NCBI GenBank assembly: GCA_947383215.1 | Contig: CANDCP010000002.1 | Coordinates: forward strand, 7,568-71,567 | Length of the DNA: 64,000 nt | Reading direction: 5' to 3' | From: an uncultured Roseburia sp. | GTDB taxonomy: Bacteria; Bacillota; Clostridia; Lachnospirales; Lachnospiraceae | Shown here: piece after piece, positions 9,842 to 55,481 of the stretch | Numbering within the stretch: position 1 is the first letter of the stretch | Layout of the letters: every line of letters begins with the position of its first letter | The notes under the pieces: model-generated | Told to the model about the DNA's origin: nothing | The model's input: only the letters and a program-made list of their open reading frames with translations | Databases searched by the model: none | Made by a program: the position numbers and the translations under genes

Positions 9842-11578
9842 TTAATTTAAAGTATAGTAGACAACCTTATTGCCCAGAGAAACCGCAACGTAGAGAGAAC
9901 CGTCTCCCTGGAGCGCCTCCTCGGCCACCTCAAAAATCAATTCGCCGTCTTTGGATTCGCCCGGTTCTAAAGAGGTACTGTTGAGGCATCTGCTGTTGCT
10001 CATGGCGTCTACGCAGTCATAAAAGTTTTCGCGGTTTGTATCGGCAATCTGTACGATTGGGTCTTCCGCAACATAGTAAACCATCGGGAGGAAGGTGTCA
10101 GTTTCCGTTCCGATATTTTTAATTGTAAATTCTCCGCGCACGAACTGGCAGCCGTCTTTGGCTGTGTAGCGGAACATACCTTCGTCAAATTCTTTTACGG
10201 TCTGACTGGAGTGATACGTGATTTCCCAGTTGCCTAAAATAACGGATTCGTCTTTTTGAAGTTCAGAATTTAAGCCGACCGTATTGTCAAGCAGACTGGT
10301 ATAAGCGTCCGGCGTGTTAATATTGTGGTATATGTAGGCCAGAATGTCCGCGGAAGTAATTTCAGGATATTCGAGCGATTCCTCAGACAGATCTCTGAAA
10401 ATACTGGATGCGGGAGTCTCTGTAATATCGCCGAGATGGCGCAGCGGCGCGCCGGTCTTTGCGTCGTATAGATCGATGGCGGTAGTTGCATTTACCTGCT
10501 GGACTTTTGTTTCGTTTCCCGCGTTGTCCTGATAAAAATCTCCGTATTCGTAGGATGGCGTTAAAATGAGATAATAATCTGCCTCTTCTGGTGATTTCGG
10601 AAATTCTTCATCTGAAAGCTGCAGCATAAAATCGCCCATAAGCTGCAGGGTAGGCGGAGAGTTTTTAAATTCCTCTGTCTGTGTGTTCCGGTAAAAAGCG
10701 GCTACTTTTTTTCCTTCCAGCTCAATTGCTTCAGATGAGGTATCCGCCTCGCCGTCTTTTAGTTCCGGTCCGTCTGTGACGGCGACGGTCAGCTTGGTAG
10801 AAAAATACTTCTCTTCGTTCAACTCTGAGGCGGTTTTGAAATCGTCTGTGCCAAACTTTACTTCCAGCTCGGGAAGAATGGATTCGCGCAGATAACTGAC
10901 GTAGGTAAACGCATCCCCTGCCGCGCCCGTTCGCACATGATAAGGCTCCAAATAGCTATAAAAATACGCCGTTTTCCAGTCGTCCAACGTCCAGTCGTCG
11001 AAAAAGCCGAGGGCTTTCAGAGCGTCGTAGATTTCCGGTATTTTTGTCGGATTCGCTTTGACCCACTTGTCAACAGTATCGGTTATTTTACTGTTGTACC
11101 CGGCGTCTGCGGGAACGTCGTTTAACAGATGTGTAAGTGTCTCGCCGTCAAGATTGTCTGCGGCCGCAAATACGGGTTCCATGCATTCGTACGGGTAGAA
11201 GGCGTCCTCGAAAGCCGCAAAAAAGTTTTCGCCCTCAGATTTCGCCTTTGCGAGATAGTTGTTTGCATATTCCGCGCTGATTGGATAATGAAACAGGAAC
11301 TGGGAATCTTCCCCCTCGTAGTTCTGGTATTCGGCTGCGGATAAAAGAGAGACGGCCTTAAACTGTTGGCTTAAGGTACTATCGGAGGAGCCGGCTTCCG
11401 CCTTCAGAGCCTCCATATCAAAATCGCCGGCGTGCTCTTTCACATAATCATTGAAATTTCCGGCCGATTTTGCATCGTCCCAGTAAGAATCGCCCGTCGT
11501 AGACTTTGCGCTTTGACATGCCGTCAGGCATACAAGCGAAAGACAGGCGGCAGCAAATAATGATTTTCTTTTCATCAT
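9842..11578 (-). CDS. Lipoprotein of unknown function
   Basis: Signal with lipobox LTAC (MMKRKSLFAAACLSLVCLTACQS). The mature part is acidic. The C-terminus looks like an Ig-like beta-sandwich (FTIKNIGTETDTF ... GESKDGELIFEV). Confidence 0.7.
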   Translation of the reverse strand: MMKRKSLFAAACLSLVCLTACQSAKSTTGDSYWDDAKSAGNFNDYVKEHAGDFDMEALKAEAGSSDSTLSQQFKAVSLLSAAEYQNYEGEDSQFLFHYPISAEYANNYLAKAKSEGENFFAAFEDAFYPYECMEPVFAAADNLDGETLTHLLNDVPADAGYNSKITDTVDKWVKANPTKIPEIYDALKALGFFDDWTLDDWKTAYFYSYLEPYHVRTGAAGDAFTYVSYLRESILPELEVKFGTDDFKTASELNEEKYFSTKLTVAVTDGPELKDGEADTSSEAIELEGKKVAAFYRNTQTEEFKNSPPTLQLMGDFMLQLSDEEFPKSPEEADYYLILTPSYEYGDFYQDNAGNETKVQQVNATTAIDLYDAKTGAPLRHLGDITETPASSIFRDLSEESLEYPEITSADILAYIYHNINTPDAYTSLLDNTVGLNSELQKDESVILGNWEITYHSSQTVKEFDEGMFRYTAKDGCQFVRGEFTIKNIGTETDTFLPMVYYVAEDPIVQIADTNRENFYDCVDAMSNSRCLNSTSLEPGESKDGELIFEVAEEALQGDGSLYVAVSLGNKVVYYTLN

Positions 11579-11752: not shown

Positions 11753-13876
11753 ATGAGAAAAATCAGAAAAAAGAGAATTTGGATTGTATTTGCAGCGACG
11801 CTGTTACTGTGTATATGCCGGGGGACGCTGTCGAGGGCGGACGCCGGAACGCAGGAGAAGGCCGTGCGCGTCGGCTATTATATATTGGACGGATTTCAGG
11901 AGCGCGACGATAACGGGAATTATACGGGTTACGCTTATGATTATTATGCGGAAATTGCACAGTATACAGGATGGGAATATGAATTTGTGGAGGGCAGCTA
12001 TGAGGACTGTCTCAATATGCTTATTAACGGTGAAATAGACATAATGAGCGGCCTGGATGTGATTGGAGATTTCAGAGAAAAGCTGGAGTTTTCCAATCAC
12101 AGCATGGGGACGACACAGCCGGAGCTCTACGCTATGGCAGACGACGAAGAGCTTACGTATGACGACTATGAGGCGTTTGACAAAAAGAGAGTCGGCGTGC
12201 CGAGAGAGAGCGACAGAGAAGATGTGCTGGACGAATACTGCGAGAGCCGTGGAATCTCGCTGGAAAAAGTGTATGCGAAGGACGATGAGAGTCTTGACGT
12301 TATGCTTCAGAAGGGCGAAATAGATATGGTTTTTTCCGGCAGAGCGCAGAATTTGTCCGGCAGAAAGGCTTTAATGTACTTTGACGCGAAACCGGCATAT
12401 TTTGTGACGGGCAAGGGCAGTCCCCTGATGATGGAAATGAATGAAACTATGGAAAGGATTATGTTAAATTCTCCGGAGTTTCAGTTGGACCTGAATGAAA
12501 AATATCTCGACGCGCTTACGCAGGAATTGCCCAATTTTACAAAGCAGGAAATGGAATATATTGCATCGGCTCCCGCTTTAAAGGTGGTATACGATCCAAG
12601 CTGGGAGCCGATCGAGTATTATAACGAAAAGAGCGGGGAGTACGACGGAATTTCCGCGGATCTGTTTGCCCTGGTTGAGAAATATTCCGGTCTGCATTTT
12701 GAATATATACGCACGGAGAACTTTTCTGAAGCGCTGGAGTGCGTCAGAGAGGGCAAAGCGGATATTCTGACCGGAATTACCAGAAGCTACAGCTGGGGCA
12801 AAGAGTGCAATGTTTATCTGACGAATTCCTATCTGGAGGCGCCGGTTGCTTTGATTGCGCAGAGTGTCGACATGCAGGACGGAATCCGCAGGCTTGCGCT
12901 GCCGCGGGATTACTATATTACCGGGCAGCTGGAGCGGCAGTATGGCAAAGAGGCGATTACTTATTATGATTCCGTGGAGGAGTGCGTGAAAGCGGTGTCG
13001 GACGGACGGGCGGATGCGACTTACGCGAACAGTTATGTAGCCAATTCCTATCTGAACCGGGGGGAATTTCGCAAGCTGCGTCTGGTCGAACTGAGCGTAT
13101 ACGCGGGCAATATCTCGGCGGCGGTCTCAAAACAGTGCGATCCGCGGCTGCTTAGCGTTATCAATAAATCGCTGAATTGCGTGCCGAACTCAAAGATGGA
13201 CGAAATTCTTTTGAACAATATGTTGAAAAAGAGAAGTATGCGTCCGTTGCAGGATTTTATTTATGAAAATCCGATGGATGCCGTTTTGATCATGTTTTTG
13301 ACTGCCTGTTTTATCATGGCGGTTCTCGCCTATATTGTCTGGTTAAAATACCGAAGTGAGAGAAAGATTAAAGAGACGTCCAGAATCGACGGTCTGACAG
13401 GACTTTATAACCGTATGGAGACAGAGCGTCTGGTGCGCGCAAGGCTTGAGGAGGCGGAGCGGCGAAATAAAAAGCTTTTGATTCTCTCGCTGGATCTCGA
13501 TAATTTTAAACAGGTAAACGATACGTATGGCCACTTGGAAGGCGATGTTTTGCTTCAGAATGTAGCCCGGACGTTTCAGGAGAATGTGGGAGCCGGTCAT
13601 ATTGTGGGACGTATGGGAGGCGACGAGTTTTTAATCTGTATTCCCAAAATACATGACGACAAAGAGGTTGTATTCTGGGCGGAGAAAATGGCGGGAGCAA
13701 TTGCGCTGCTTAGTCAGAGCAAGGCGGAGTGGAATAAGATTTCCGTCAGTATCGGGCTTGTAGTGGCAGACGGAAAAGCGGCAGAGAGCTTTGAAGCTCT
13801 TTATCAGCGCGTAGATGAAGCGCTGTATCAGGCCAAGAATGCAGGCAAGAATTGTTATCGAATCTATAAAAGATAA
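11753..13876 (+). CDS. Membrane diguanylate cyclase with two periplasmic solute-binding (SBP_bac_3-like) domains
   Basis: RBS gggggaag. Signal sequence, two tandem SBP-like domains, one TM helix, then a GGDEF domain (RIDGLTGLYNR ... GRMGGDEFLI). Confidence 0.9.
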   Translation: MRKIRKKRIWIVFAATLLLCICRGTLSRADAGTQEKAVRVGYYILDGFQERDDNGNYTGYAYDYYAEIAQYTGWEYEFVEGSYEDCLNMLINGEIDIMSGLDVIGDFREKLEFSNHSMGTTQPELYAMADDEELTYDDYEAFDKKRVGVPRESDREDVLDEYCESRGISLEKVYAKDDESLDVMLQKGEIDMVFSGRAQNLSGRKALMYFDAKPAYFVTGKGSPLMMEMNETMERIMLNSPEFQLDLNEKYLDALTQELPNFTKQEMEYIASAPALKVVYDPSWEPIEYYNEKSGEYDGISADLFALVEKYSGLHFEYIRTENFSEALECVREGKADILTGITRSYSWGKECNVYLTNSYLEAPVALIAQSVDMQDGIRRLALPRDYYITGQLERQYGKEAITYYDSVEECVKAVSDGRADATYANSYVANSYLNRGEFRKLRLVELSVYAGNISAAVSKQCDPRLLSVINKSLNCVPNSKMDEILLNNMLKKRSMRPLQDFIYENPMDAVLIMFLTACFIMAVLAYIVWLKYRSERKIKETSRIDGLTGLYNRMETERLVRARLEEAERRNKKLLILSLDLDNFKQVNDTYGHLEGDVLLQNVARTFQENVGAGHIVGRMGGDEFLICIPKIHDDKEVVFWAEKMAGAIALLSQSKAEWNKISVSIGLVVADGKAAESFEALYQRVDEALYQAKNAGKNCYRIYKR

Positions 13877-47527: not shown

Positions 47528-47920
47528 TTGGCTAATACAAAGTATTACGGAACGGGAAGAAGAAAGTCATCTGTTGCCAGAGTATATTTAGCGCCGGGTA
47601 CAGGTAAGATTACGATAAATAAGAGAGATATTGACGATTATTTTGGTTTGGAGACATTGAAGGTGATTGTTCGCCAGCCATTGGCAGCGACGGAGACAGC
47701 CGACAAGTTTGACATTTTGGTAAATGTAAAGGGCGGCGGCTATACAGGACAGGCAGGCGCAATCAGACACGGAATTGCAAGAGCGCTGCTCACGGTTGAC
47801 GCTGATTACAGACCAACGCTCAAGTCCAAAGGTTTCCTGACAAGGGATCCGCGTATGAAAGAGAGAAAGAAATACGGCCTCAAGGCAGCCCGCCGTGCGC
47901 CGCAGTTCTCCAAGAGATAA
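47528..47920 (+). CDS. rpsI: 30S ribosomal protein S9
   Basis: TTG start as given in the ORF track. [19 protein letters not shown] and the C-terminal ...RAPQFSKR are typical of S9. Confidence 0.95.
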
Positions 47921-47984
47921 GCAGTTATTCCCGAACAGAAAAGAGACAGAGAACCCACAGACATATTTTGTTTGTGGGTTTTTC
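47909..47984 (+). repeat. Direct repeat copy 1 (rpsI 3' end plus terminator)
   Basis: tccaagagataagcagttattcccgaacagaaaagagacagagaacccacagacatattttgtttgtgggttttt recurs at 48799-48876, with 8 mismatches by hand alignment. Confidence 0.85.
47952..47984 (+). terminator. Intrinsic terminator of rplM-rpsI
   Basis: Stem cccacagaca / tgtttgtggg (one G-U pair), 5-nt loop, T-run. Confidence 0.8.
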
Positions 47985-48003
47985 ACATGATGAAAAAATG
48001 TGT

Positions 48004-48032
48004 TTGACAAATGTTATCATATATGATAACAT
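48004..48032 (+). promoter_or_regulatory. Promoter with an overlapping 22-bp perfect palindrome (probable TA autoregulatory operator)
   Basis: TTGACA at 48004-48009. atgttatcatatatgataacat (48011-48032) is a perfect palindrome covering the spacer and the -10 region (taacat at 17-nt spacing). Confidence 0.55.
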
Positions 48033-48049
48033 AATGACAAGCAAAGGAA

Positions 48050-48418
48050 GTGACTAAAATTATTGAATTAGATTTCTATATGAAAGAAAATGGGAAAATA
48101 CCTGTGCAGGATTTTTTATATTCACTTAATCCGAAACTAAGAGCCAAAACTTTTAGTGATATTGAGTTATTAAAACAGTTAGGGACTGAATTGAGAGAGC
48201 CGTATGTAAAACCTGTAAAAGGAAAAGATAATAAAGGCCTGTATGAATTGCGGATAAAGTTTTCAAGCGATATAGCGAGAATATTTTACTTTACATATTA
48301 TAACAATAAGTTTGTGTTGTTGTATGGATTTATCAAAAAGACCATGAAAACACCTGAAAATGAAATAAAGAAAGCAAGGAAATATATGGAAGATTATAAA
48401 AGGAGGTCTGAATCATGA
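48050..48418 (+). CDS. Type II toxin, RelE/ParE superfamily (HigB / phage Gp49-like)
   Basis: N-terminal ...LDFYMKENGKIPVQDFLYSL, then LYELRIKFSSDIARIFYFTYYNNKFVLLYGFIKKTMKTPENEI, typical of the Gp49-like toxin family. The exact start (GTG at 48050) is uncertain. Confidence 0.75.
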   Translation: MTKIIELDFYMKENGKIPVQDFLYSLNPKLRAKTFSDIELLKQLGTELREPYVKPVKGKDNKGLYELRIKFSSDIARIFYFTYYNNKFVLLYGFIKKTMKTPENEIKKARKYMEDYKRRSES

Positions 48419-48699
48419 GTAAAGCTGGGATATCTTTTGAAGAAATGAAAGCCGATATGCTTAAGGATGAAGAATTTAGAATAGAATATGAAAAATTAAG
48501 GCCCAGATATGAAGCAATTGAGCAGATTATAAATGCAAGAAAAGAACAAAATATAACACAGGCAGAACTTGCGAAGAGAGTAGGTACACAGAAAAGTAAT
48601 ATTTCCAGGTTAGAGAGCGGAAATTATAATCCCAGTTTGGATTTCCTGACAAAAATTGCGGAATCTCTTGGGAAAAAAATATCTGTGACGTTAAATTAG
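48415..48699 (+). CDS. XRE-family HTH antitoxin (HigA-like)
   Basis: ATGA overlap with the toxin gene. HTH ITQAELAKRVGTQKSNISRLESGNYNPSLDFLTKIA. Confidence 0.8.
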   Translation: MSKAGISFEEMKADMLKDEEFRIEYEKLRPRYEAIEQIINARKEQNITQAELAKRVGTQKSNISRLESGNYNPSLDFLTKIAESLGKKISVTLN

Positions 48700-48798
48700 A
48701 ATAAGGGCTCATTCAGCAGGACAGTATGCGTCAATATGAATATTTATGGGTAAGTGACAAATGTATTGAAAGTGCCGGAAAATCGGGATCTGAAACTA

Positions 48799-48876
48799 TC
48801 CAAGAGGTAAGCGGTTATTCACAAACAGACAAGAGACAGAAAACCCACAGACAGATTTTGTTTGTGGTTTTTTTAA
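48799..48876 (+). repeat. Direct repeat copy 2 (diverged duplicate of the rpsI 3' end plus terminator)
   Basis: tccaagaggtaagcggttattcacaaacagacaagagacagaaaacccacagacagattttgtttgtggttttttt. Confidence 0.85.
48844..48876 (+). terminator. Duplicated terminator hairpin
   Basis: Stem ccacagaca / tgtttgtgg followed by a 7-T run. It is one bp shorter than copy 1. Confidence 0.6.
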
Positions 48877-49148
48877 CGGGTAGATTGTGATATACTTAAA
48901 TTGAATTTGAATAGAATGGAAATAAGGCAATTATTAGAATTGATGCAGAATTGGGAATTTGGAAAGATTGTACGTTGTGATATGTCACACATGATTGAGA
49001 AAGAGGCTATTGCATAACTCATGGAGAATTTAACAGAATATTCTGCCACAACGACATATCGGCATTATTGAGAAGGTGCAGATACAAATATTTTACGCTA
49101 CCGGGCAAGCGACTGATAACAGGTAGCAATTGAAAGGAGAGGATAAAG

Positions 49149-49628
49149 ATGTATATCAAAAAATACTGGTATAACTATATCGGCGGCACGGATGATAGCC
49201 TGACCTTAGCGGACTATCTCTATGAAAAAGGCAAAACGGAACTTCCACTAAGTGAGATATTTAGAGATACTGGTCTTGATAAGCTGAACTGGAATTTCCG
49301 CACTTCACCTGATTTAAAATATACTGACTCCGGAAACGGATGCCATGAATTTTACTATGCCATTGATTTGATAACCGATTTGGCGGCGCTTATTTTGGAA
49401 AGTAAAAAAAGCGGCGGGTTCAATCTAAAGGATCTGTTTGATGATGAGGATCGGGATTTGTTTTTAAAAATCACCACCACACCAGAAGAAGATCGGGCAA
49501 TGAATCGTGCTTTGGCAGATTTTTTCGCAGCCCCTCTTGAATATGATCTCCATGAAATGATGGATGATGACGATATACGGGAAATGGCACAAGACTGCGA
49601 AAATATCCGTGAGGAGTTGGATGTATAA
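49149..49628 (+). CDS. Hypothetical acidic protein (159 aa)
   Basis: Strong RBS aaaggagagg. The C-terminal half is very D/E-rich (DDEDRD, MMDDDDIREMAQD). No family recognised. Confidence 0.55.
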   Translation: MYIKKYWYNYIGGTDDSLTLADYLYEKGKTELPLSEIFRDTGLDKLNWNFRTSPDLKYTDSGNGCHEFYYAIDLITDLAALILESKKSGGFNLKDLFDDEDRDLFLKITTTPEEDRAMNRALADFFAAPLEYDLHEMMDDDDIREMAQDCENIREELDV

Positions 49629-49712: not shown

Positions 49713-50228
49713 TCATAGTCTCCTCTTTCTGTATTCCATTTCAATACAATTCCATGTTTCGCCCATACAAGTATAGCGTTCGATATGTTCTGATTTCACT
49801 CTTTGAAAACCGCAGGCTTCATAACATTTTATAGCGGCTGTATTGTTTTCAAAAACTCCCAGTGATATTTTCTTTACTTTGACAAAGTCGAAGGCGTACC
49901 GGGCGGCCAGAAGAATCATTTCTTTTCCGTATCCCTTTCCGCGCTTTTCATTATCGACAATCACGAAGCCCAGCCGGATTTCATCATTGCGGTTGTCGTC
50001 CGGAAAGCGCATAGTAAAATGTCCGATGATACCGGCGTCGTCAAAAGCCGTCATTCCCCAGATTCGTTCATTATTTTTATCGTTGCGATAATACAAATTC
50101 ATATCATTCGGTGTAATCGGGAATTTATCGTAGCGGTCTGCGCTCCACTGGCGAAAAGAATACTCGTCTTTTATCCATGCCGTTATTTTCTGCGCATCAC
50201 AGTCTTTATATGGTCTGAGTCTTATCAT
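49713..50228 (-). CDS. GNAT-family N-acetyltransferase
   Basis: Acetyl-CoA binding box VDNEKRGKGYGKEMILLAARYAF, with the typical beta4-alpha3 region. Confidence 0.85.
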   Translation of the reverse strand: MIRLRPYKDCDAQKITAWIKDEYSFRQWSADRYDKFPITPNDMNLYYRNDKNNERIWGMTAFDDAGIIGHFTMRFPDDNRNDEIRLGFVIVDNEKRGKGYGKEMILLAARYAFDFVKVKKISLGVFENNTAAIKCYEACGFQRVKSEHIERYTCMGETWNCIEMEYRKRRL

Positions 50229-50313
50229 AAAGTCGCTCCTTGAATACGGTGTCGTGTTAAATAAAATATAACATAAAGCTTATCTTTTGTCTGTAATACG
50301 ATTAAAAATCTTC

Positions 50314-50342
50314 CTTAAGTTTTTTTGGCTTTTATCCGACAT
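50314..50342 (+). promoter_or_regulatory. Sigma-28 (SigD/FliA)-type promoter candidate
   Basis: cTTAAGT - 14 nt - TCCGACAT, which aligns as TAAG-N15-tCCGAcAT against the consensus TAAA-N15-GCCGATAT. It lies 80 nt upstream of ATG 50422. Confidence 0.5.
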
Positions 50343-50421
50343 AAAAAGTAGAGAAAATGGTTACGGCATACGTAAAAGAGGCAGAGTGCAGGCGTGTGCG
50401 AAGATTAATTGGAGGAAAGAC

Positions 50422-53400
50422 ATGAAAATAGATGCAGCAGCATTACTTGACGGTACGGTAAATATTGCGGGCGCGGCAAAAAAGGAAGACATAGCGGTTC
50501 GGGCGGAAGAGAGGGAGACGTTTGCCGTGTATAAACCGGAGGGAACATCCGGCTTATTTGGGGACGCTACATATGGAAAACCAAGCCGGGACGGAGAGGA
50601 GATTCTTGAGGATATCGCCAGTCAGGCAGAGGTTTCCGATGCGACACAGATGAAAAATGAAAGGTTGTTCGCCGTAAACACGACATCAGAAGAGGATGGC
50701 AGGAAGCTGGAGGAGGACGGTTTTTCTTTAAATTCCACAGAGATAAAGACTGTTGTGACGGAGACGGATAAGATAAAGGCCGAGCTTGCAAAAGCAGGCG
50801 TGGATATCAGTATGTTCGGAGACGGGCTGACAAGAGAGCAGTTGGAGGAGATTACCGGAAACGCGGCGCTCGCACAGCAGATGGAGGCATTATTTGCGCA
50901 GGCGGATCTGCCGTTGAGCGAGCAGAATCTGACAGAGGCGAACGAGAGCCTTCAGATGGCAAAGGAGCTGACAGGGCTTAGCGATAACGCCGTAAAATAT
51001 TTGCTGGATAACGGGTTAGAACCGACAATAGAGAATCTCTATAAAGCCGAATACAGCGGCAATTACCGTTCGCCGGAAGAGACGGCGGATTATAGTTCGT
51101 TTATGAATCAGATAGAGAAGGTAATTAAACAGGCCGGTTTTGAAGTGACCGAGGAGACGATTGAAGATAGCAAGTGGATGATAGCGAACCAGGTTTCGTT
51201 CACGCCTGAGAATTTTGCATATATGCAGAAATTAGAGCAGCTTTTGCTTCCGCCGGACGAGGCGAAGGTAATGAAAGCGATAGTACAGGCGATTGCAGAG
51301 GGCGGACGTCCAAAGGACGCAATGTTGATCGAGGGCTTTACGCTCGCGGACAAAGCAAAAGAAGCTTCAGATGTTGTAAAAGGGGCGCAGGAAACGGATT
51401 TGGCATGGCTTGTCGAAAACGACAGGGAGCTAACCGTCGAAAATTTGAAGGAGGCTGCGGGGCACAGAGGCGACGGCGCGGACGAACGCAGCCTGACGGC
51501 GCAGAAGGAGCTTTTGCTATTGACGGCCCGCCGGCAGCTGGAAGAAGCCAGGCTTGCGATGACGGCGCAGGCGAATTATTCACTGTTAAAGCAGGGGATA
51601 TCGGTAGATACAAAACCGTTGGCCGAGTTGGTCGATACGTTAAAGGCGCAGGAGAACGCTTATTACGAGAAACTGCTCACACAGGCCGGTATCGCGGCGG
51701 ATGAAACCAGTGTCGCCATATTTAGGGAGACGGTAGAGACCGTAGAGGCGTTAAAGGACGTGCCGTCTTATACGCTTGGAATACCGCAGGCGGATGAGGA
51801 AACATTGAAAGGCCTGTATAGAGCGGGAAAAGAGCTTCAAAATACATTAGATAAAGCGGGAGAGAGATATGATACAATGATGACAAAGCCGCGCGCCGAT
51901 ATGGGCGACACCATCCAGAAAGCGTTTGCGAATGTAGATGATATCCTTCGCGATCTGGGATTTGAGCAGAGCGAGGAGAACCAAAGGGCGGTGCGGATTT
52001 TGGCATATAACAATCTTGAAATAACAGAGCAGTCCGTCATGCAGATAAAAGCGGCGGATGAGGCGGTTTCAAGAGCCTTTAAAAATATGACGCCGTCAGT
52101 CGTCCGGGAAATGATAAGAGACGGCGTAAACCCTCTGGATATGAATATTACAGAATTGAACAGAGAGGCCGTTAGGATAAAGCAAGAGCTTGGCATTGAA
52201 GAGGAGGAGCGTTTTTCGAAGTATCTGTGGAAGCTGGATCAAAGCAAAGCGATATCGGAGGAGGAGCGGAATGCTTTTTTGGGAATTTACCGTCTGATTA
52301 CACAGGTGGAAAAGACAGACGGAGCGGCAATCGGGGCTCTGCTTGCGCAGGGCGGAGAGGTTACCATGCGCAATTTACTGACACAGATTCGTTCTGCAAA
52401 GCACGGGGGGAAGGAATATACGGTAGACGATGCGTTTTCCGGTGTGGACGGGGTTAAAGGCGGTTTGTCGATTACCGAGCAGATTGAGATGGGGTATCAG
52501 GCCGACTGCATCCGTGATGCGCTTGATGAGATTACGCCGGATAAGATGGCCGGGCTTGTGAGAGATCAAAACTGGCAGGATATGACGCCGGAGCAGTTCG
52601 CAAAGGCGCTTGCGTCTCTGGGGGAGGAGACAGAGCTTGACGCGGCATATACAAGAGCGCAGCTGGAGGAGTTTGAGGAGGCGGCAATGGCTCCGAGGGA
52701 GGTGTATCGGATGCTTTCGGAGTACGATCTGCCAAATACAACCGAGTATGTGACGGCGGCGTACGAAATGATAAAGAACCGCAACAAGGTATTTGCAGGT
52801 TTCTTCGGAGAGAAAATTCCGGGGGAGGATGCGGACAATGCGGTGGATTTTGAGGAGATTAAGCGGGGGCTTCTGGAAAAATTCGCGGAGTCGTTAAAAA
52901 CGCCTGAGGAGATGGCGAAAGCGCAGAAGGCGCTTGCGGATACGGCGGAAAACGTTATGAAAACAATGATAACTGAGGACGAGAATGTTACAAGTATTGA
53001 TCTGCGGCAGATGAAGCTGCTCAATACGCAGATTGCAATCGGTACAAAACAGGCGAAAGAAGAGACATATGCAATACCTGTGCTTGTCGGGGATGAAATT
53101 ACAAACATATCGTTGAAAATTGTCAGAGGAAAAGAGAAAAAAGGTCTGGTAGACATCACATTTTCCACAGATAAGCTTGGAAAGGTAGCGGCGCAGCTGA
53201 AAGCGGGAAAGAGCGGCGTCAGCGGATATGTGGCCTGCGAGAAGAGAGAAACAGCCGATTTGCTTGCGCAAAGAAACGGAATGCTCTCAGAGGCGTTAGA
53301 GCAGACAGAGGGAGGGGCGGACATTCGCTATGTGACATCGGAAAACCTGAATCTCGTTTCGTTTGGCAGTGAGGATATTTCGGAACAGGGAGAAGGCGAC

Positions 53401-53472
53401 GCCGTCTTGACTAAAACGCTTTATGGTATGGCGGAAAGCTTTATTAAGACGGTAAAAAGTCTGCAGGCATAA
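50422..53472 (+). CDS. Large acidic helical protein (1016 aa), unknown function, putative flagellar-regulon member
   Basis: ATG with a ggagg RBS; the upstream part of the track ORF has no RBS. No signal peptide or TM helix. E/A/K-rich, with recurring short motifs such as LEPTIENLYKA, RELTVENLKEA, NLEITEQSVMQ and GEVTMRNLLTQ. Confidence 0.6.
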   Translation: MKIDAAALLDGTVNIAGAAKKEDIAVRAEERETFAVYKPEGTSGLFGDATYGKPSRDGEEILEDIASQAEVSDATQMKNERLFAVNTTSEEDGRKLEEDGFSLNSTEIKTVVTETDKIKAELAKAGVDISMFGDGLTREQLEEITGNAALAQQMEALFAQADLPLSEQNLTEANESLQMAKELTGLSDNAVKYLLDNGLEPTIENLYKAEYSGNYRSPEETADYSSFMNQIEKVIKQAGFEVTEETIEDSKWMIANQVSFTPENFAYMQKLEQLLLPPDEAKVMKAIVQAIAEGGRPKDAMLIEGFTLADKAKEASDVVKGAQETDLAWLVENDRELTVENLKEAAGHRGDGADERSLTAQKELLLLTARRQLEEARLAMTAQANYSLLKQGISVDTKPLAELVDTLKAQENAYYEKLLTQAGIAADETSVAIFRETVETVEALKDVPSYTLGIPQADEETLKGLYRAGKELQNTLDKAGERYDTMMTKPRADMGDTIQKAFANVDDILRDLGFEQSEENQRAVRILAYNNLEITEQSVMQIKAADEAVSRAFKNMTPSVVREMIRDGVNPLDMNITELNREAVRIKQELGIEEEERFSKYLWKLDQSKAISEEERNAFLGIYRLITQVEKTDGAAIGALLAQGGEVTMRNLLTQIRSAKHGGKEYTVDDAFSGVDGVKGGLSITEQIEMGYQADCIRDALDEITPDKMAGLVRDQNWQDMTPEQFAKALASLGEETELDAAYTRAQLEEFEEAAMAPREVYRMLSEYDLPNTTEYVTAAYEMIKNRNKVFAGFFGEKIPGEDADNAVDFEEIKRGLLEKFAESLKTPEEMAKAQKALADTAENVMKTMITEDENVTSIDLRQMKLLNTQIAIGTKQAKEETYAIPVLVGDEITNISLKIVRGKEKKGLVDITFSTDKLGKVAAQLKAGKSGVSGYVACEKRETADLLAQRNGMLSEALEQTEGGADIRYVTSENLNLVSFGSEDISEQGEGDAVLTKTLYGMAESFIKTVKSLQA

Positions 53473-53480
53473 AATTAACG

Positions 53481-53509
53481 CTTAAGTAAAGGCAGAAAGC
53501 TGTCGATAT
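53481..53509 (+). promoter_or_regulatory. Sigma-28 (SigD/FliA)-type promoter candidate for flagellin
   Basis: cTTAAGT - 14 nt - GTCGATAT, with the same -35 heptamer and spacing as 50314-50342. It lies 89 nt upstream of ATG 53598. Confidence 0.6.
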
Positions 53510-53597
53510 AGAATACAGTATAAAATAATGTATGAGAATCAAGGGCAGGGAAGTCCAAAGATCCGCATGGAGGCGGAGAAAGAAAGAGGTTATTTCC

Positions 53598-54992
53598 ATG
53601 AAAGTAAATTATAATATGTCAGCGGTAATTACAAACAGCCAGTTATTAAGGACAGAGGGTAATCTGACAACTGCAATGGAAAAGCTGTCTTCCGGTATTC
53701 GTATCAACCATGCGAGGGACGATGCGGCGGGAATGGCGATTTCAAATAAAATGAGACTGCAGATCGACGGACTGGATCAGGCGTCGCAGAACGCGTCGAA
53801 CGGGACGTCCGTGCTTCAGACGGCGGACGGAGCGTTAAATGAAGTAACCAGTATTATACAGCGTATGCGCGAGCTTGCGGTACAGGCCGCGAACGATACG
53901 AATGTGGACAGCGATAAAAAAGCGATACAGGCAGAGATTGCTTCCCTTCGGGAAGAGGTAGACCGCGTGTCAAAGGATACGGAATTCAACACGAAGCCTT
54001 TGCTGGACGGAACGCTGGATAACCGTGTGTATGCGAAGAATATCAGCCGGATTGACGCGTCCATTTATGTCGATGCAGGCAAATACGAGGTCGATGTCAC
54101 GACGGCGGCGACAAAAGGAAATCTGGCGGCAGACTCGGCACAGTTTGCGGATATGACGGGCTACGTTAACGCTTCAGGGAGACTTAAGATTAACGGATAT
54201 GTTATAGAAATAGAAGAGACCGATACAATGGAGCAGGTTTATGAAAAGATTCGTGAGGGAGCGGAATTTGGCGAGGCGGAGGCCGATATATTAGACGACG
54301 GCACATTGAGCCTGACGTCATCATTTTATGGTGAGAAAGGCGTCGTAAAGGTGGAGGCAGAAAATACAGAGCTGGCCGCGGCGCTGGGATTTTCCAGCAC
54401 GAGACCGGACGTTGTGTACGGCGAGGACGTTCAGATTGCGCTGGGCGACGGTTTTTCGGATACCGCGACGGTAAGCGTGGATGGAAATAAGGTTGTCATT
54501 ACAGATAAATCGGGATTTGAAATTGCGTTTATGGTAGATGAGAATTATCCGGTAGCGGGAGCGGTAGATACGACCGTAGAGATTGAGGTGACGGAGATTG
54601 GTTCCATGACATTGCAGATTGGAGCAAATGAGGATCAGACAATGGATGTGCGCATTCCGAAAATCAGCGCGCAGACGCTTTATCTGGATGAAGTAGACGT
54701 TACCACTGTAAACGGGGCCAGCCGTGCGATTGACAGAATGGATAAAGCGCTTGACAAGTTGATGAGCGTGCGCTCTTCGCTCGGTGCGTTTGAGAACCGG
54801 CTTGACTACGCGGTTCAGGCGCTGGATGAGACGAATGAAAATATGACGGCCGCGCTCTCCCGGATTGAGGATGTGGATATGGCGGCGGAAATGTCGAATT
54901 ATACGCAGCAGAATGTATTGGAACAGGCGGCGATTTCTGTATTGTCCCAGGCAAACGATTTGCCGCAGCAGACATTGCAGTTGTTACAGTAA
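53598..54992 (+). CDS. fliC: Flagellin
   Basis: ATG after an agaaagagg RBS. N-terminal MKVNYNMSAVITNSQLLRTEGNL...LSSGIRINHARDDAAGMAISNKM, C-terminal ...LSQANDLPQQTLQLLQ, and a variable central region. Confidence 0.95.
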   Translation: MKVNYNMSAVITNSQLLRTEGNLTTAMEKLSSGIRINHARDDAAGMAISNKMRLQIDGLDQASQNASNGTSVLQTADGALNEVTSIIQRMRELAVQAANDTNVDSDKKAIQAEIASLREEVDRVSKDTEFNTKPLLDGTLDNRVYAKNISRIDASIYVDAGKYEVDVTTAATKGNLAADSAQFADMTGYVNASGRLKINGYVIEIEETDTMEQVYEKIREGAEFGEAEADILDDGTLSLTSSFYGEKGVVKVEAENTELAAALGFSSTRPDVVYGEDVQIALGDGFSDTATVSVDGNKVVITDKSGFEIAFMVDENYPVAGAVDTTVEIEVTEIGSMTLQIGANEDQTMDVRIPKISAQTLYLDEVDVTTVNGASRAIDRMDKALDKLMSVRSSLGAFENRLDYAVQALDETNENMTAALSRIEDVDMAAEMSNYTQQNVLEQAAISVLSQANDLPQQTLQLLQ

Positions 54993-55004
54993 AGGGTGAT
55001 GACG

Positions 55005-55481
55005 ATGGATGCCGAAAAAAAGCAGGAGTTTACAAGGCGGATCAGTGCGAGCAACCGCAGCGGTCTTGTCGTCATTATGTACGAAATTTTGAAAGAGTAC
55101 ATGGGCGAAGCAGAGAGCGCGCATAAAAAGGACGATTATGAAGCGTTTAAGACGGCAATCCGCAATGGCGACAAAGTTCTGGCGGAGCTGTCAGACGCGT
55201 TGGATTTTAAATACGAACTTTCCGCGCAGCTCTATCCGTTATATACGTTTGCCCGCAGATCTCTGATGATGTGCATCGTGAAAAACGACACGAAGGGTAT
55301 AGAGGATGCCAGAAAGGCCCTGGATCCGCTTCATGCAGCCTTTGAAAAGATTGCACAGGCGGATACCTCAGAGCCTCTGATGCGCAATACGCAGCAGGTT
55401 TACGCCGGTATTACATATGGAAAAGAAAATTTAAAAGAGAGCTTTCAGGAGCCGGAAACTTCCAGAGGATTCTTTGCATAA
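55005..55481 (+). CDS. fliS: Flagellar export chaperone FliS
   Basis: Lies directly downstream of flagellin. Four-helix pattern: SGLVVIMYEILKEYMGEA, IRNGDKVLAELSDALDF, LYPLYTFARRSLMMC, LDPLHAAFEKI. Confidence 0.75.
   Translation: MDAEKKQEFTRRISASNRSGLVVIMYEILKEYMGEAESAHKKDDYEAFKTAIRNGDKVLAELSDALDFKYELSAQLYPLYTFARRSLMMCIVKNDTKGIEDARKALDPLHAAFEKIAQADTSEPLMRNTQQVYAGITYGKENLKESFQEPETSRGFFA

Follow-up and report, generated by a model that had tools for sequence, protein, structure and literature searches.

A 0.89-kb segment lying immediately 3' of rpsI, the gene for ribosomal protein S9, in an uncultured Roseburia sp. (Lachnospiraceae; contig CANDCP010000002.1) is probably an integrase-less cassette flanked by attachment (att) sites, of the type known as cis-mobilizable elements (CIMEs). 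It carries a HigBA toxin–antitoxin (TA) operon and occupies the rpsI attachment site of a group of 351-aa tyrosine integrases encoded by prophages and by integrative and mobilizable elements (IMEs) of Lachnospiraceae. The segment spans positions 47921–48810 of the 64-kb stretch of DNA that was analyzed (the window), and all coordinates given below are window positions unless another locus is named. In the organization that we propose, the left boundary would be formed by the stop-codon core of rpsI (CAAGAGATAA), followed by a terminator that would insulate the rplM-rpsI operon (in arrays, the first terminator of each unit would shield either that operon or the unit before it), and then by the cassette's own, presumably autoregulated promoter and the higB-higA operon; the right boundary would be an attR-type site, in which a P arm with GTAAsTrAC repeats is joined to a second copy of the core. 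The rplM-rpsI (L13-S9) operon itself is downstream of ecfA/ecfA/ecfT/truA. The features that define the unit and its boundaries are as follows.

47528–47920, forward strand: rpsI (ribosomal protein S9), the target gene (PF00380, 3.6e-51).
47909–47920, forward strand: core copy 1 (TCCAAGAGATAA), the last three codons and stop of rpsI and the left junction of the cassette, placed where the cross-species cassette homology begins and common to integrase-bearing elements.
47921–47984, forward strand: spacer and rho-independent terminator hairpin T(a) (fold −21.2 kcal/mol, z −5.0), which ends rplM-rpsI transcription and travels with the HigBA cassette.
48004–48032, forward strand: sigma-70-like HigBA promoter, with a TTGACA −35 at 48004, a 17-nt spacer, a TG-extended −10 and a palindrome, kept in L097, L101, L150 and L106.
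48050–48418, forward strand: higB-like toxin gene (Gp49/RelE superfamily; PF05973, 5.9e-23).
48415–48699, forward strand: higA-like XRE-HTH antitoxin gene (PF01381, 3.2e-15), with an ATGA overlap with the toxin stop.
48748–48798, forward strand: P arm of the attR-type site (GGGTAAGTGACA...GAAAGTGCCGGAAAAT..GGATCTGAAACTA), from an nhmmer profile and a colinear alignment.
48799–48810, forward strand: core copy 2 (TCCAAGAGGTAA), the right junction of the cassette, from the repeat alignment.
48811–48876, forward strand: spacer and terminator T(b) (fold −14.4 kcal/mol, z −2.0; terminator scan), of the same family as T(a) and part of the next block rather than of the HigBA unit.

Comparison of sequences across species reveals transfer of the HigBA unit from one species to another as a discrete block. 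The 0.89-kb unit is also found 3' of rpsI in at least two other species, and in alignments of the window with loci L097 and L101 the cassette (promoter to higA) is ~0.91 identical and rpsI ~0.77 identical; homology begins at CAAGAGATAA, spans the spacer and T(a), and ends at the P arm and core, with a different Ser codon immediately 5' of the core in L101. A 95%-identical toxin (L097–L100) is encoded directly 3' of rpsI in a species with different upstream synteny, with a NUDIX unit next to it, and a 92%-identical toxin from Dorea (334 collection blocks) heads an array in the order HigBA, epsilon/zeta and ToxIN. HigBA homologues that are 86% identical are also present elsewhere than at rpsI, within a phage-like region and next to a TetR gene; the homology of such non-rpsI copies is confined to 48004–48677, and they lack both the P arm and the T(a) spacer and hairpin, the latter of which stand 5' of HigBA in L097 and L101. 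The cassette is missing from L120, the closest relative, whose S9 is 96% identical and whose upstream synteny is the same; after rpsI, L120 carries what is left of an attL together with the final codons of an integrase gene. The preliminary description of this locus had proposed comparing relatives at this site, and the absence counts in its favor. One of the loci with the 95%-identical toxin, L098 (ERZ12802736), belongs to the same ENA accession series as the contigs of the window organism (ERZ128027xx–129xx), which fits exchange of the cassette inside a single ecosystem.

These comparisons bear on an alternative that we consider unlikely, namely that a HigBA-bearing prophage or IME decayed in place and left an inert scar, fixed and immobile, which has been inherited vertically or moved only by homologous recombination through rpsI or shared modules. 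Prophages and IMEs of the integrase family do occupy the rpsI site, a HigBA homologue is found in a phage-like region, the P arm in the window has suffered a deletion, modules are shuffled between arrays and contigs with an identical S9 are not polymorphic (see below), all of which a scar would accommodate. However, the left and right boundaries are identical in three species with different neighbors and the cassette is far more similar than rpsI, which together require transfer of a precisely bounded unit; with ~77% DNA identity, rpsI offers little anchorage for homologous recombination, and simple decay does not place a native-like rpsI terminator at the left end.

The right end of the cassette is, by alignment, homologous to the right-end att sites of integrase-bearing prophages and mobilizable elements. 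A P arm of ~50–72 nt carrying GTAAsTrAC arm-type repeats precedes core copy 2 and leads into a sequence that mimics the rpsI stop region, CTAT-CnAAGAGrTAA; the window-type arm reads GGGTAAGTGACAGGTAACTAACAAATGCCTTGAAAATGCCGnAAAATAAGGnTTTGAAACTAT and then the core CnAAGAGATAA, the distance between the first GTAAG and the stop being constant at 72 nt. An nhmmer profile built from three cassette ends matches after every cassette found 3' of rpsI, i.e., in the window (48738–48814), L044, L066, L067, L097 and L101, and also beside the core in integrase-bearing IMG/VR contigs L139–L149 (E 8e-12 to 1e-9); the arms of integrase-bearing elements and the cassette ends align colinearly over 72 nt. Pattern scans of viral contigs for the hairpin, the arm–core junction and the arm repeats returned 0 matches. 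Another explanation of the same conservation is that arm, core and hairpin serve not as a tyrosine-integrase att site but as a functional module of a 3' untranslated region or small RNA, or as an attC structure like that of integrons. The motif is indeed always positioned at the 3' end of a transcription unit with a terminator next to it, but Rfam gave no match for the copy-2 region or the whole window and the P arm has no RNA fold beyond that of shuffles (z −0.04), and this idea was therefore dropped. In addition, the hairpins that follow the arm and core vary freely between copies, the motif abuts a P' arm and an integrase gene in tandem elements, the core mimics the end of rpsI and the arrays start at rpsI, all of which render such a module highly improbable.

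The integrases in question were identified with a tyrosine-recombinase motif search, which located integrase genes convergent with, and immediately 3' of, rpsI in L027, L058 and L086, IME-like elements that also encode XRE, AAA_25, MobV relaxase and methylase proteins. Integrase genes with a PF00589 match, convergent with and adjacent to rpsI, are found in L027, L058, L086, L111, L119, L131 and L133–L135, the last three of which are prophages. The 351-aa integrase has 2533 homologues at E ≤ 1e-30, with some clusters comprising thousands of members, and adjoins rpsI wherever the flank is visible. L086, L111, L117 and L131 pair the integrase with AAA_25, with or without Mob_Pre, and the IMEs in L117 (SIR2 and DUF87 ATPase) and L131 (restriction-modification, GmrSD and HEPN; the far end lies beyond the contig) carry defense cargo. 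The complete ~10-kb IME in L117 defines both of its ends, with attL and attR sharing TCAAAGAGATA: in attL, CAGTTCTCAAAGAGATAG is followed by a P' arm bearing three GTAACTAACA-type repeats and then by a terminator and the integrase gene, and attR consists of GGTAACAAACACGTAACTAACA, ~49 nt, CTATCAAAGAGATAA and a terminator. In L140, the lysis/tail end of a prophage runs through its arm into the core, on the other side of which an IME contributes its P' arm and integrase, and this P arm–core–P' arm order reveals direct tandem accretion of a prophage and an IME. An IME or prophage, whether co-resident or incoming, would supply in trans the integrase that integrates the HigBA unit and could excise or carry it, along the route of accretion and cis-mobilization described for CIMEs. 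On this view, a TA cassette can be flanked by a duplicated gene end and yet lack a recombinase, since that enzyme is encoded by other elements with a common attachment site.

The direct repeat that surrounds the cassette in the window is best understood in this context. Positions 47909–47983 recur at 48799–48873 over 75 nt with 67 of 75 positions identical (89%), as the preliminary description had noted in reporting a repeat of the rpsI end and terminator with 8 mismatches; a 36-nt degenerate pattern derived from the repeat finds only two sites in the window and gave 0 matches in 100 shuffles. Copy 2 preserves the last three codons and stop of rpsI (TCC AAG AGG TAA), and a hairpin with a T-run closes both copies. 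The interval between them is AT-rich (GC 0.29–0.37, versus 0.44–0.59 upstream) and contains no terminal inverted repeats, recombinase or transposase, again in line with that description. In L097 and L101, the direct repeat around the HigBA cassette extends over only ~10–12 nt because the sequence after core 2 is unrelated among the three species, and it reaches 75 nt in the window because the block after copy 2, whose T(b) hairpin is common to copy 2 of L044, carries a terminator of the T(a) family. The 75-nt repeat is thus the core plus two terminators of one family, not a duplication created by insertion, and the 8 mismatches therefore do not date the insertion.

This analysis alters the earlier interpretation in several respects. 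The unit had been thought to have landed in the terminator and to have duplicated its target, in a non-recent event judged by the divergence of the two copies, and by a mechanism that could not be assigned to any known class of element. Instead, the left edge of the repeat is in the rpsI stop-codon region and not in the terminator, the junction is the same rpsI stop-codon core used by integrase-bearing prophages and IMEs, the homology that matters reaches ~50 nt further 5' of copy 2, into the P arm (48748–48798), the second terminator belongs to the neighboring block, and a known mechanism applies, i.e., tyrosine-integrase integration and accretion at the 3' end of rpsI, with CIME-type derivatives. 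What the description had right is the overall character of the locus, an att-like-flanked, horizontally moved TA cassette without a recombinase of its own, which the cross-species and att-site comparisons support.

An autonomous, transposon-like minimal unit that inserted in the rpsI terminator by an unspecified mechanism, with a target-site duplication of ~76 nt, is by the same comparisons largely refuted and retains very little probability. A long direct repeat around compact, recombinase-less cargo is what such a unit would leave, but the same cassette is flanked by a far shorter repeat in L097 and L101. In addition, the repeat begins on its left side at the integrase core, the right end shows homology to the att sites of integrases, and what follows copy 2 belongs to another block, common to L044. 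The unit also has neither terminal inverted repeats nor a transposase.

The cargo has the properties expected of a type II TA system of the HigBA type, with a toxin of the RelE/HigB (Gp49) fold encoded 5' of an XRE-HTH antitoxin in a single operon, and the AT-rich interval does hold the promoter, putative palindromic operator and overlapping pair of open reading frames (ORFs) that had been recognized earlier. Each of the two predicted proteins matches one chain of the Streptococcus pneumoniae HigBA complex (HigB, PDB 6AF3_A, E 2.5e-12; HigA, PDB 6AF3_B, E 3e-8); this system (PDB 6AF3/6AF4) shares the toxin-first operon with the window pair, but the relationship of the proteins is distant. The toxin has 570 homologues at E ≤ 1e-10 and no name in NCBIfam, and its start is ambiguous (GTG 48050 or ATG 48080), with the Dorea homologue annotated from an internal Met. 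The sole result of a plasmid search was a distant TA pair (66.5%) carried by plasmids of Clostridium tyrobutyricum. The −35 and −10 elements enclose a perfect 22-bp palindrome (48011–48032) that homologues also retain; it is likely the HigA operator. HigB would then act as a ribosome-dependent mRNA endonuclease held in check by its antitoxin, with the operon repressed through the palindromic operator, and HigBA may either stabilize the island (addiction) or provide abortive defense against phage, as the other cargo at this site suggests.

Measured against known mobile elements, the window unit best fits the CIME type at rpsI, newly found in Lachnospiraceae and with one oddity at its left end. 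Between the cores there are only higB and higA, with no integrase, excisionase or transfer gene, and the right end is an attR of the prophage/IME integrase family (P arm plus core); tandem accretion at the target gene is evident in the decayed neighbor in the window, in the arrays of L101, L044 and L093, and in the prophage–IME tandem of L140. The integrase and relaxase or conjugation module that characterize IMEs and integrative and conjugative elements (ICEs) at rpsI are absent between the cores.

Several observations weigh against this assignment. The left end has the core but lacks the P' arm repeats found in L058, L117 and L120; the core is followed by a terminator resembling the native rpsI terminator, with no P' arm or integrase gene, so that simple deletion within an IME or prophage would not have produced the unit. 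If the HigBA unit were to circularize, the junction would be of the attR type and not an attP junction. The window P arm has lost its second GTAACTAAC repeat through a 10–11-nt deletion, and the window copy may therefore be immobile. The tyrosine-recombinase motif has no match in the 64-kb window, which holds no integrase of the family. All 23 of the 23 contigs read that have an S9 identical to that of the window share the same arrangement (10 arrangements shown), so that there is no strain-level empty site and no sign of ongoing excision among them; these contigs and those with an identical toxin all derive from one ENA accession series. The composite pattern of two arm repeats and the CTAT-core, whose 16 matches are all cassette ends or IME attR sites and which gave none in shuffles, was devised after the data had been seen. 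Finally, the same cargo is found with different terminators and the same terminator–promoter with different cargo, and this shuffling of modules suggests that homologous recombination has also shaped the arrays. The alternative offered earlier, that the unit is a remnant of a larger integrated element, is close to the explanation we favor.

This architectural oddity keeps alive, at low probability, a second interpretation, in which the rpsI units of Lachnospiraceae would be a dedicated cassette system and not products of decay. Each unit would comprise a terminator, a promoter, a defense or TA operon and the 72-nt arm, with an attR-type site only, and would be inserted and excised singly through non-canonical attR × attB or attR × attR recombination by integrases borrowed from prophages or IMEs. 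If true, this would represent an integron-like array of defense genes, served by a recombinase in trans and anchored to a ribosomal protein gene.

Integron cassettes, clusters of attC sites lacking an integrase (CALINs) and Xer-dependent pdif modules are likewise arrays of small, recombinase-less units that end in a recombination site, with the recombinase encoded elsewhere. Unlike integron cassettes and CALINs, the rpsI cassettes have no folded attC-like site or adjacent IntI and possess their own promoters and terminators, and their site mimics the 3' end of a gene rather than dif, which distinguishes them from pdif modules.

Other candidate classes were considered and rejected. For an integron gene cassette, a site folding as an imperfect hairpin (attC), an adjacent IntI and attI and promoterless cargo are expected, but the P arm has no fold beyond that of shuffles, there is no integrase beside rpsI in the window and the cassette has its own promoter. 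An insertion sequence or transposon would have terminal inverted repeats, a transposase and a target-site duplication of fixed length; the unit has neither of the first two, and its repeat is 75 nt here and ~10–12 nt around the same cassette elsewhere. Insertion of a class C group II intron at the terminator was dismissed on finding no intron or reverse transcriptase in the unit, and an IS200/IS605-like element mobilized in trans on finding no subterminal hairpin pair. Homology-facilitated illegitimate recombination leaves the conserved arm and core unexplained.

Two further observations concern the terminators. In L097, a T(a)-like hairpin with compensatory changes in the stem is located at the distal end of the array, consistent with a displaced native terminator. 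A GTT(T)GTGGAAT motif that recurs in the integrase-side P' arms of L058, L117 and L086 resembles the terminator 3' stem GTTTGTGGG of the cassette hairpins (47954–47978 and 48844–48868); this likeness may be a coincidence or may reflect a protein-binding element kept at the left end of the cassette.

The same rpsI sites are filled by different cargo, sometimes in arrays, in other genomes. We retrieved 80 Lachnospiraceae loci via TruA (nearest GTDB species only 74% identical in TruA), and the window's cargo was found after rpsI in 0 of the 80. Several of these loci have extra copies of the rpsI end 3' of rpsI, with differing cargo between them and a conserved arm before the distal copy, including the following.

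L044: ToxN between rpsI-end copies.
L066: ToxIN between rpsI-end copies.
L035: MATE transporter between rpsI-end copies.
L093: two units, one with adenosine deaminase and a zeta-like kinase, the other with DUF1848, an acyltransferase and an XRE-AbrB protein.

Arrays of up to three units are present in L101, L044 and L093, and the alternative cargo anticipated between the same repeats includes ToxIN, zeta toxin, NUDIX and a MATE transporter. The one metagenome scan returned only the L044 species again, as L096.

Additional features of individual arrays were noted. In L067 (14359–14650), only ~290 nt separate the rpsI stop from a complete P arm and core, with a terminator, a promoter and no evident gene between; this ~290-bp segment is an empty, microCIME-like unit. 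The ToxIN cassette of L044 (also L096) is flanked not by rpsI cores but by copies of a short-ORF 3' end (11080–11146 and 12230–12312), with two ToxI-like 36-nt repeats at ~11313–11400 and a partial P arm at 12097–12152, an arrangement that is either a nested insertion or the result of inter-cassette recombination. A second mimic of the rpsI end (CCAAGAGATAA / CCGAAGAGATAG) is found 9–10 nt past the true stop in L024 (right after rpsI) and in L133 (reverse complement, ~6791), and these mimics look like scars of past integration or excision, or separate pseudo-attB sites. In L060 (~10881–10950), an inverted copy of the rpsI 3' end (TTATCGCGTTGAACTGCGG) follows the rpsI terminator and gives rise to a long inverted repeat around it.

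The rpsI locus is also occupied by elements of other kinds. Roseburia intestinalis loci L121–L130, with identical S9, differ from strain to strain and display several states after rpsI, including a reference arrangement: L126 harbors an IME with a large serine recombinase, Mob_Pre and a primase, and L121 and L128 harbor large elements with ParAB, Bro-N and a serine recombinase. Unrelated classes of recombinase therefore exploit the same gene end. Two reverse transcriptase genes were encountered in the loci compared, one of a group II intron (RVT_1 and GIIM) between ecfA and rplQ in L111 (9533–10951), and one in the prophage tail region of L140 (10625–12010) that may be part of a diversity-generating retroelement.

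Downstream of copy 2, the window continues with a second, decayed cassette and an accessory gene.

48937–49094, forward strand: decayed neighboring cassette, with a short-ORF 3' end (48937–49026) and a leader-like segment (49039–49094), from blastn.
49149–49628, forward strand: orphan Imm68 polymorphic-toxin immunity gene (PF15583, 5.8e-56; GC ~0.40), an accessory gene of the AT-rich island.

In blastn, 48937–49094 matches L044 at 11080–11146 (89.6%), 12230–12312 (83%) and 11225–11281 (82%), and L066 at 9953–10009 (86%), and the block after copy 2 (T(b), short-ORF remnant and leader fragment) is common to the block after copy 2 in L044, which belongs to a different genus. We take the short-ORF remnant (48937–49026) to be DUF2442-like; the intact 40-aa ORF of L044 gave no Pfam match. 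The fragments upstream of Imm68 are homologous to the short-ORF 3' end and to the leader of the ToxIN cassette in L044 and L066, and the cargo 3' of the shared leader appears to have been swapped (Imm68 versus ToxIN). No toxin gene for Imm68 was found nearby, and NCBIfam has no name for the Imm68 protein. A 54-aa ORF at 48726–48890, annotated as a gene in public assemblies of this species, reads through the P arm, core 2 and the terminator hairpin without any Pfam match, and is almost certainly spurious for these reasons. Further downstream (49713–55481) are a minus-strand GNAT gene and genes for a 1061-aa DUF6240/FliK-like protein, flagellin, FliS, and a Tad/type II secretion-like ATPase with membrane proteins; the accessory island probably ends by ~50290.

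The 3' end of rpsI has been described as an integration site in other Gram-positive bacteria, where it was named a hot spot (PMC2858755). In streptococci, it is targeted by IMEs and ICEs with tyrosine integrases of three families (Tyr_4, Tyr_5 and Tyr_7), which generate short or long repeats and frequently form tandem accretions with decayed elements (PMC5357655), and IMESag-rpsI from Streptococcus agalactiae carries a TA module (PMC5090054). These elements resemble the present unit in rpsI 3'-end integration, direct repeats and TA cargo (PMC5090054, PMC5357655), and MobV relaxase IMEs are represented both among them and by L086, L111 and L140; the window unit differs in lacking an integrase, a relaxase and a replication gene. 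In Enterococcus faecium, the esp pathogenicity island (ICEEfm1) is flanked by an imperfect 54-bp repeat of which the left copy is the 3' end of rpsI (PMC2858755). A long imperfect rpsI-end repeat likewise surrounds acquired, lower-GC DNA in the window, but the esp island is self-transferable, ~60 kb in length and has its own integrase, in contrast to the two-gene, 0.89-kb unit described here.

CIMEs, the integrase-less, att-flanked derivatives of such elements, are documented in Streptococcus salivarius as classical CIMEs of 1.2–13 kb, gene-less microCIMEs of 130–220 bp and 16 composite islands at rpsI (PMC7563491, PMC5704250). Like the HigBA unit, they are devoid of an integrase, cargo-bearing or empty, bounded by att sites of ICE/IME tyrosine integrases and located at the 3' end of rpsI, often in tandem arrays. 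They differ in host and, apparently, in the integrase family involved; the HigBA unit is moreover smaller than the classical size range and has a native-like rpsI terminator, not an integrase-side arm, at its left end, and the Lachnospiraceae units are each a self-contained terminator–promoter–operon module. A literature search found no description of the rpsI site, this integrase family or these cassettes in Lachnospiraceae.

With these findings, the rpsI integration hot spot known from Streptococcus and Enterococcus now includes gut Lachnospiraceae, and a very abundant integrase family is identified along with the sequences of its core and arms. The 72-nt arm profile provides a practical marker for integrase-less islands that are missed by methods based on signature genes, and the public gene call at 48726–48890 is flagged as spurious. 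At this site, TA and defense genes, among them HigBA, zeta toxin, ToxIN, SIR2, restriction-modification and GmrSD, accumulate and are exchanged between species.

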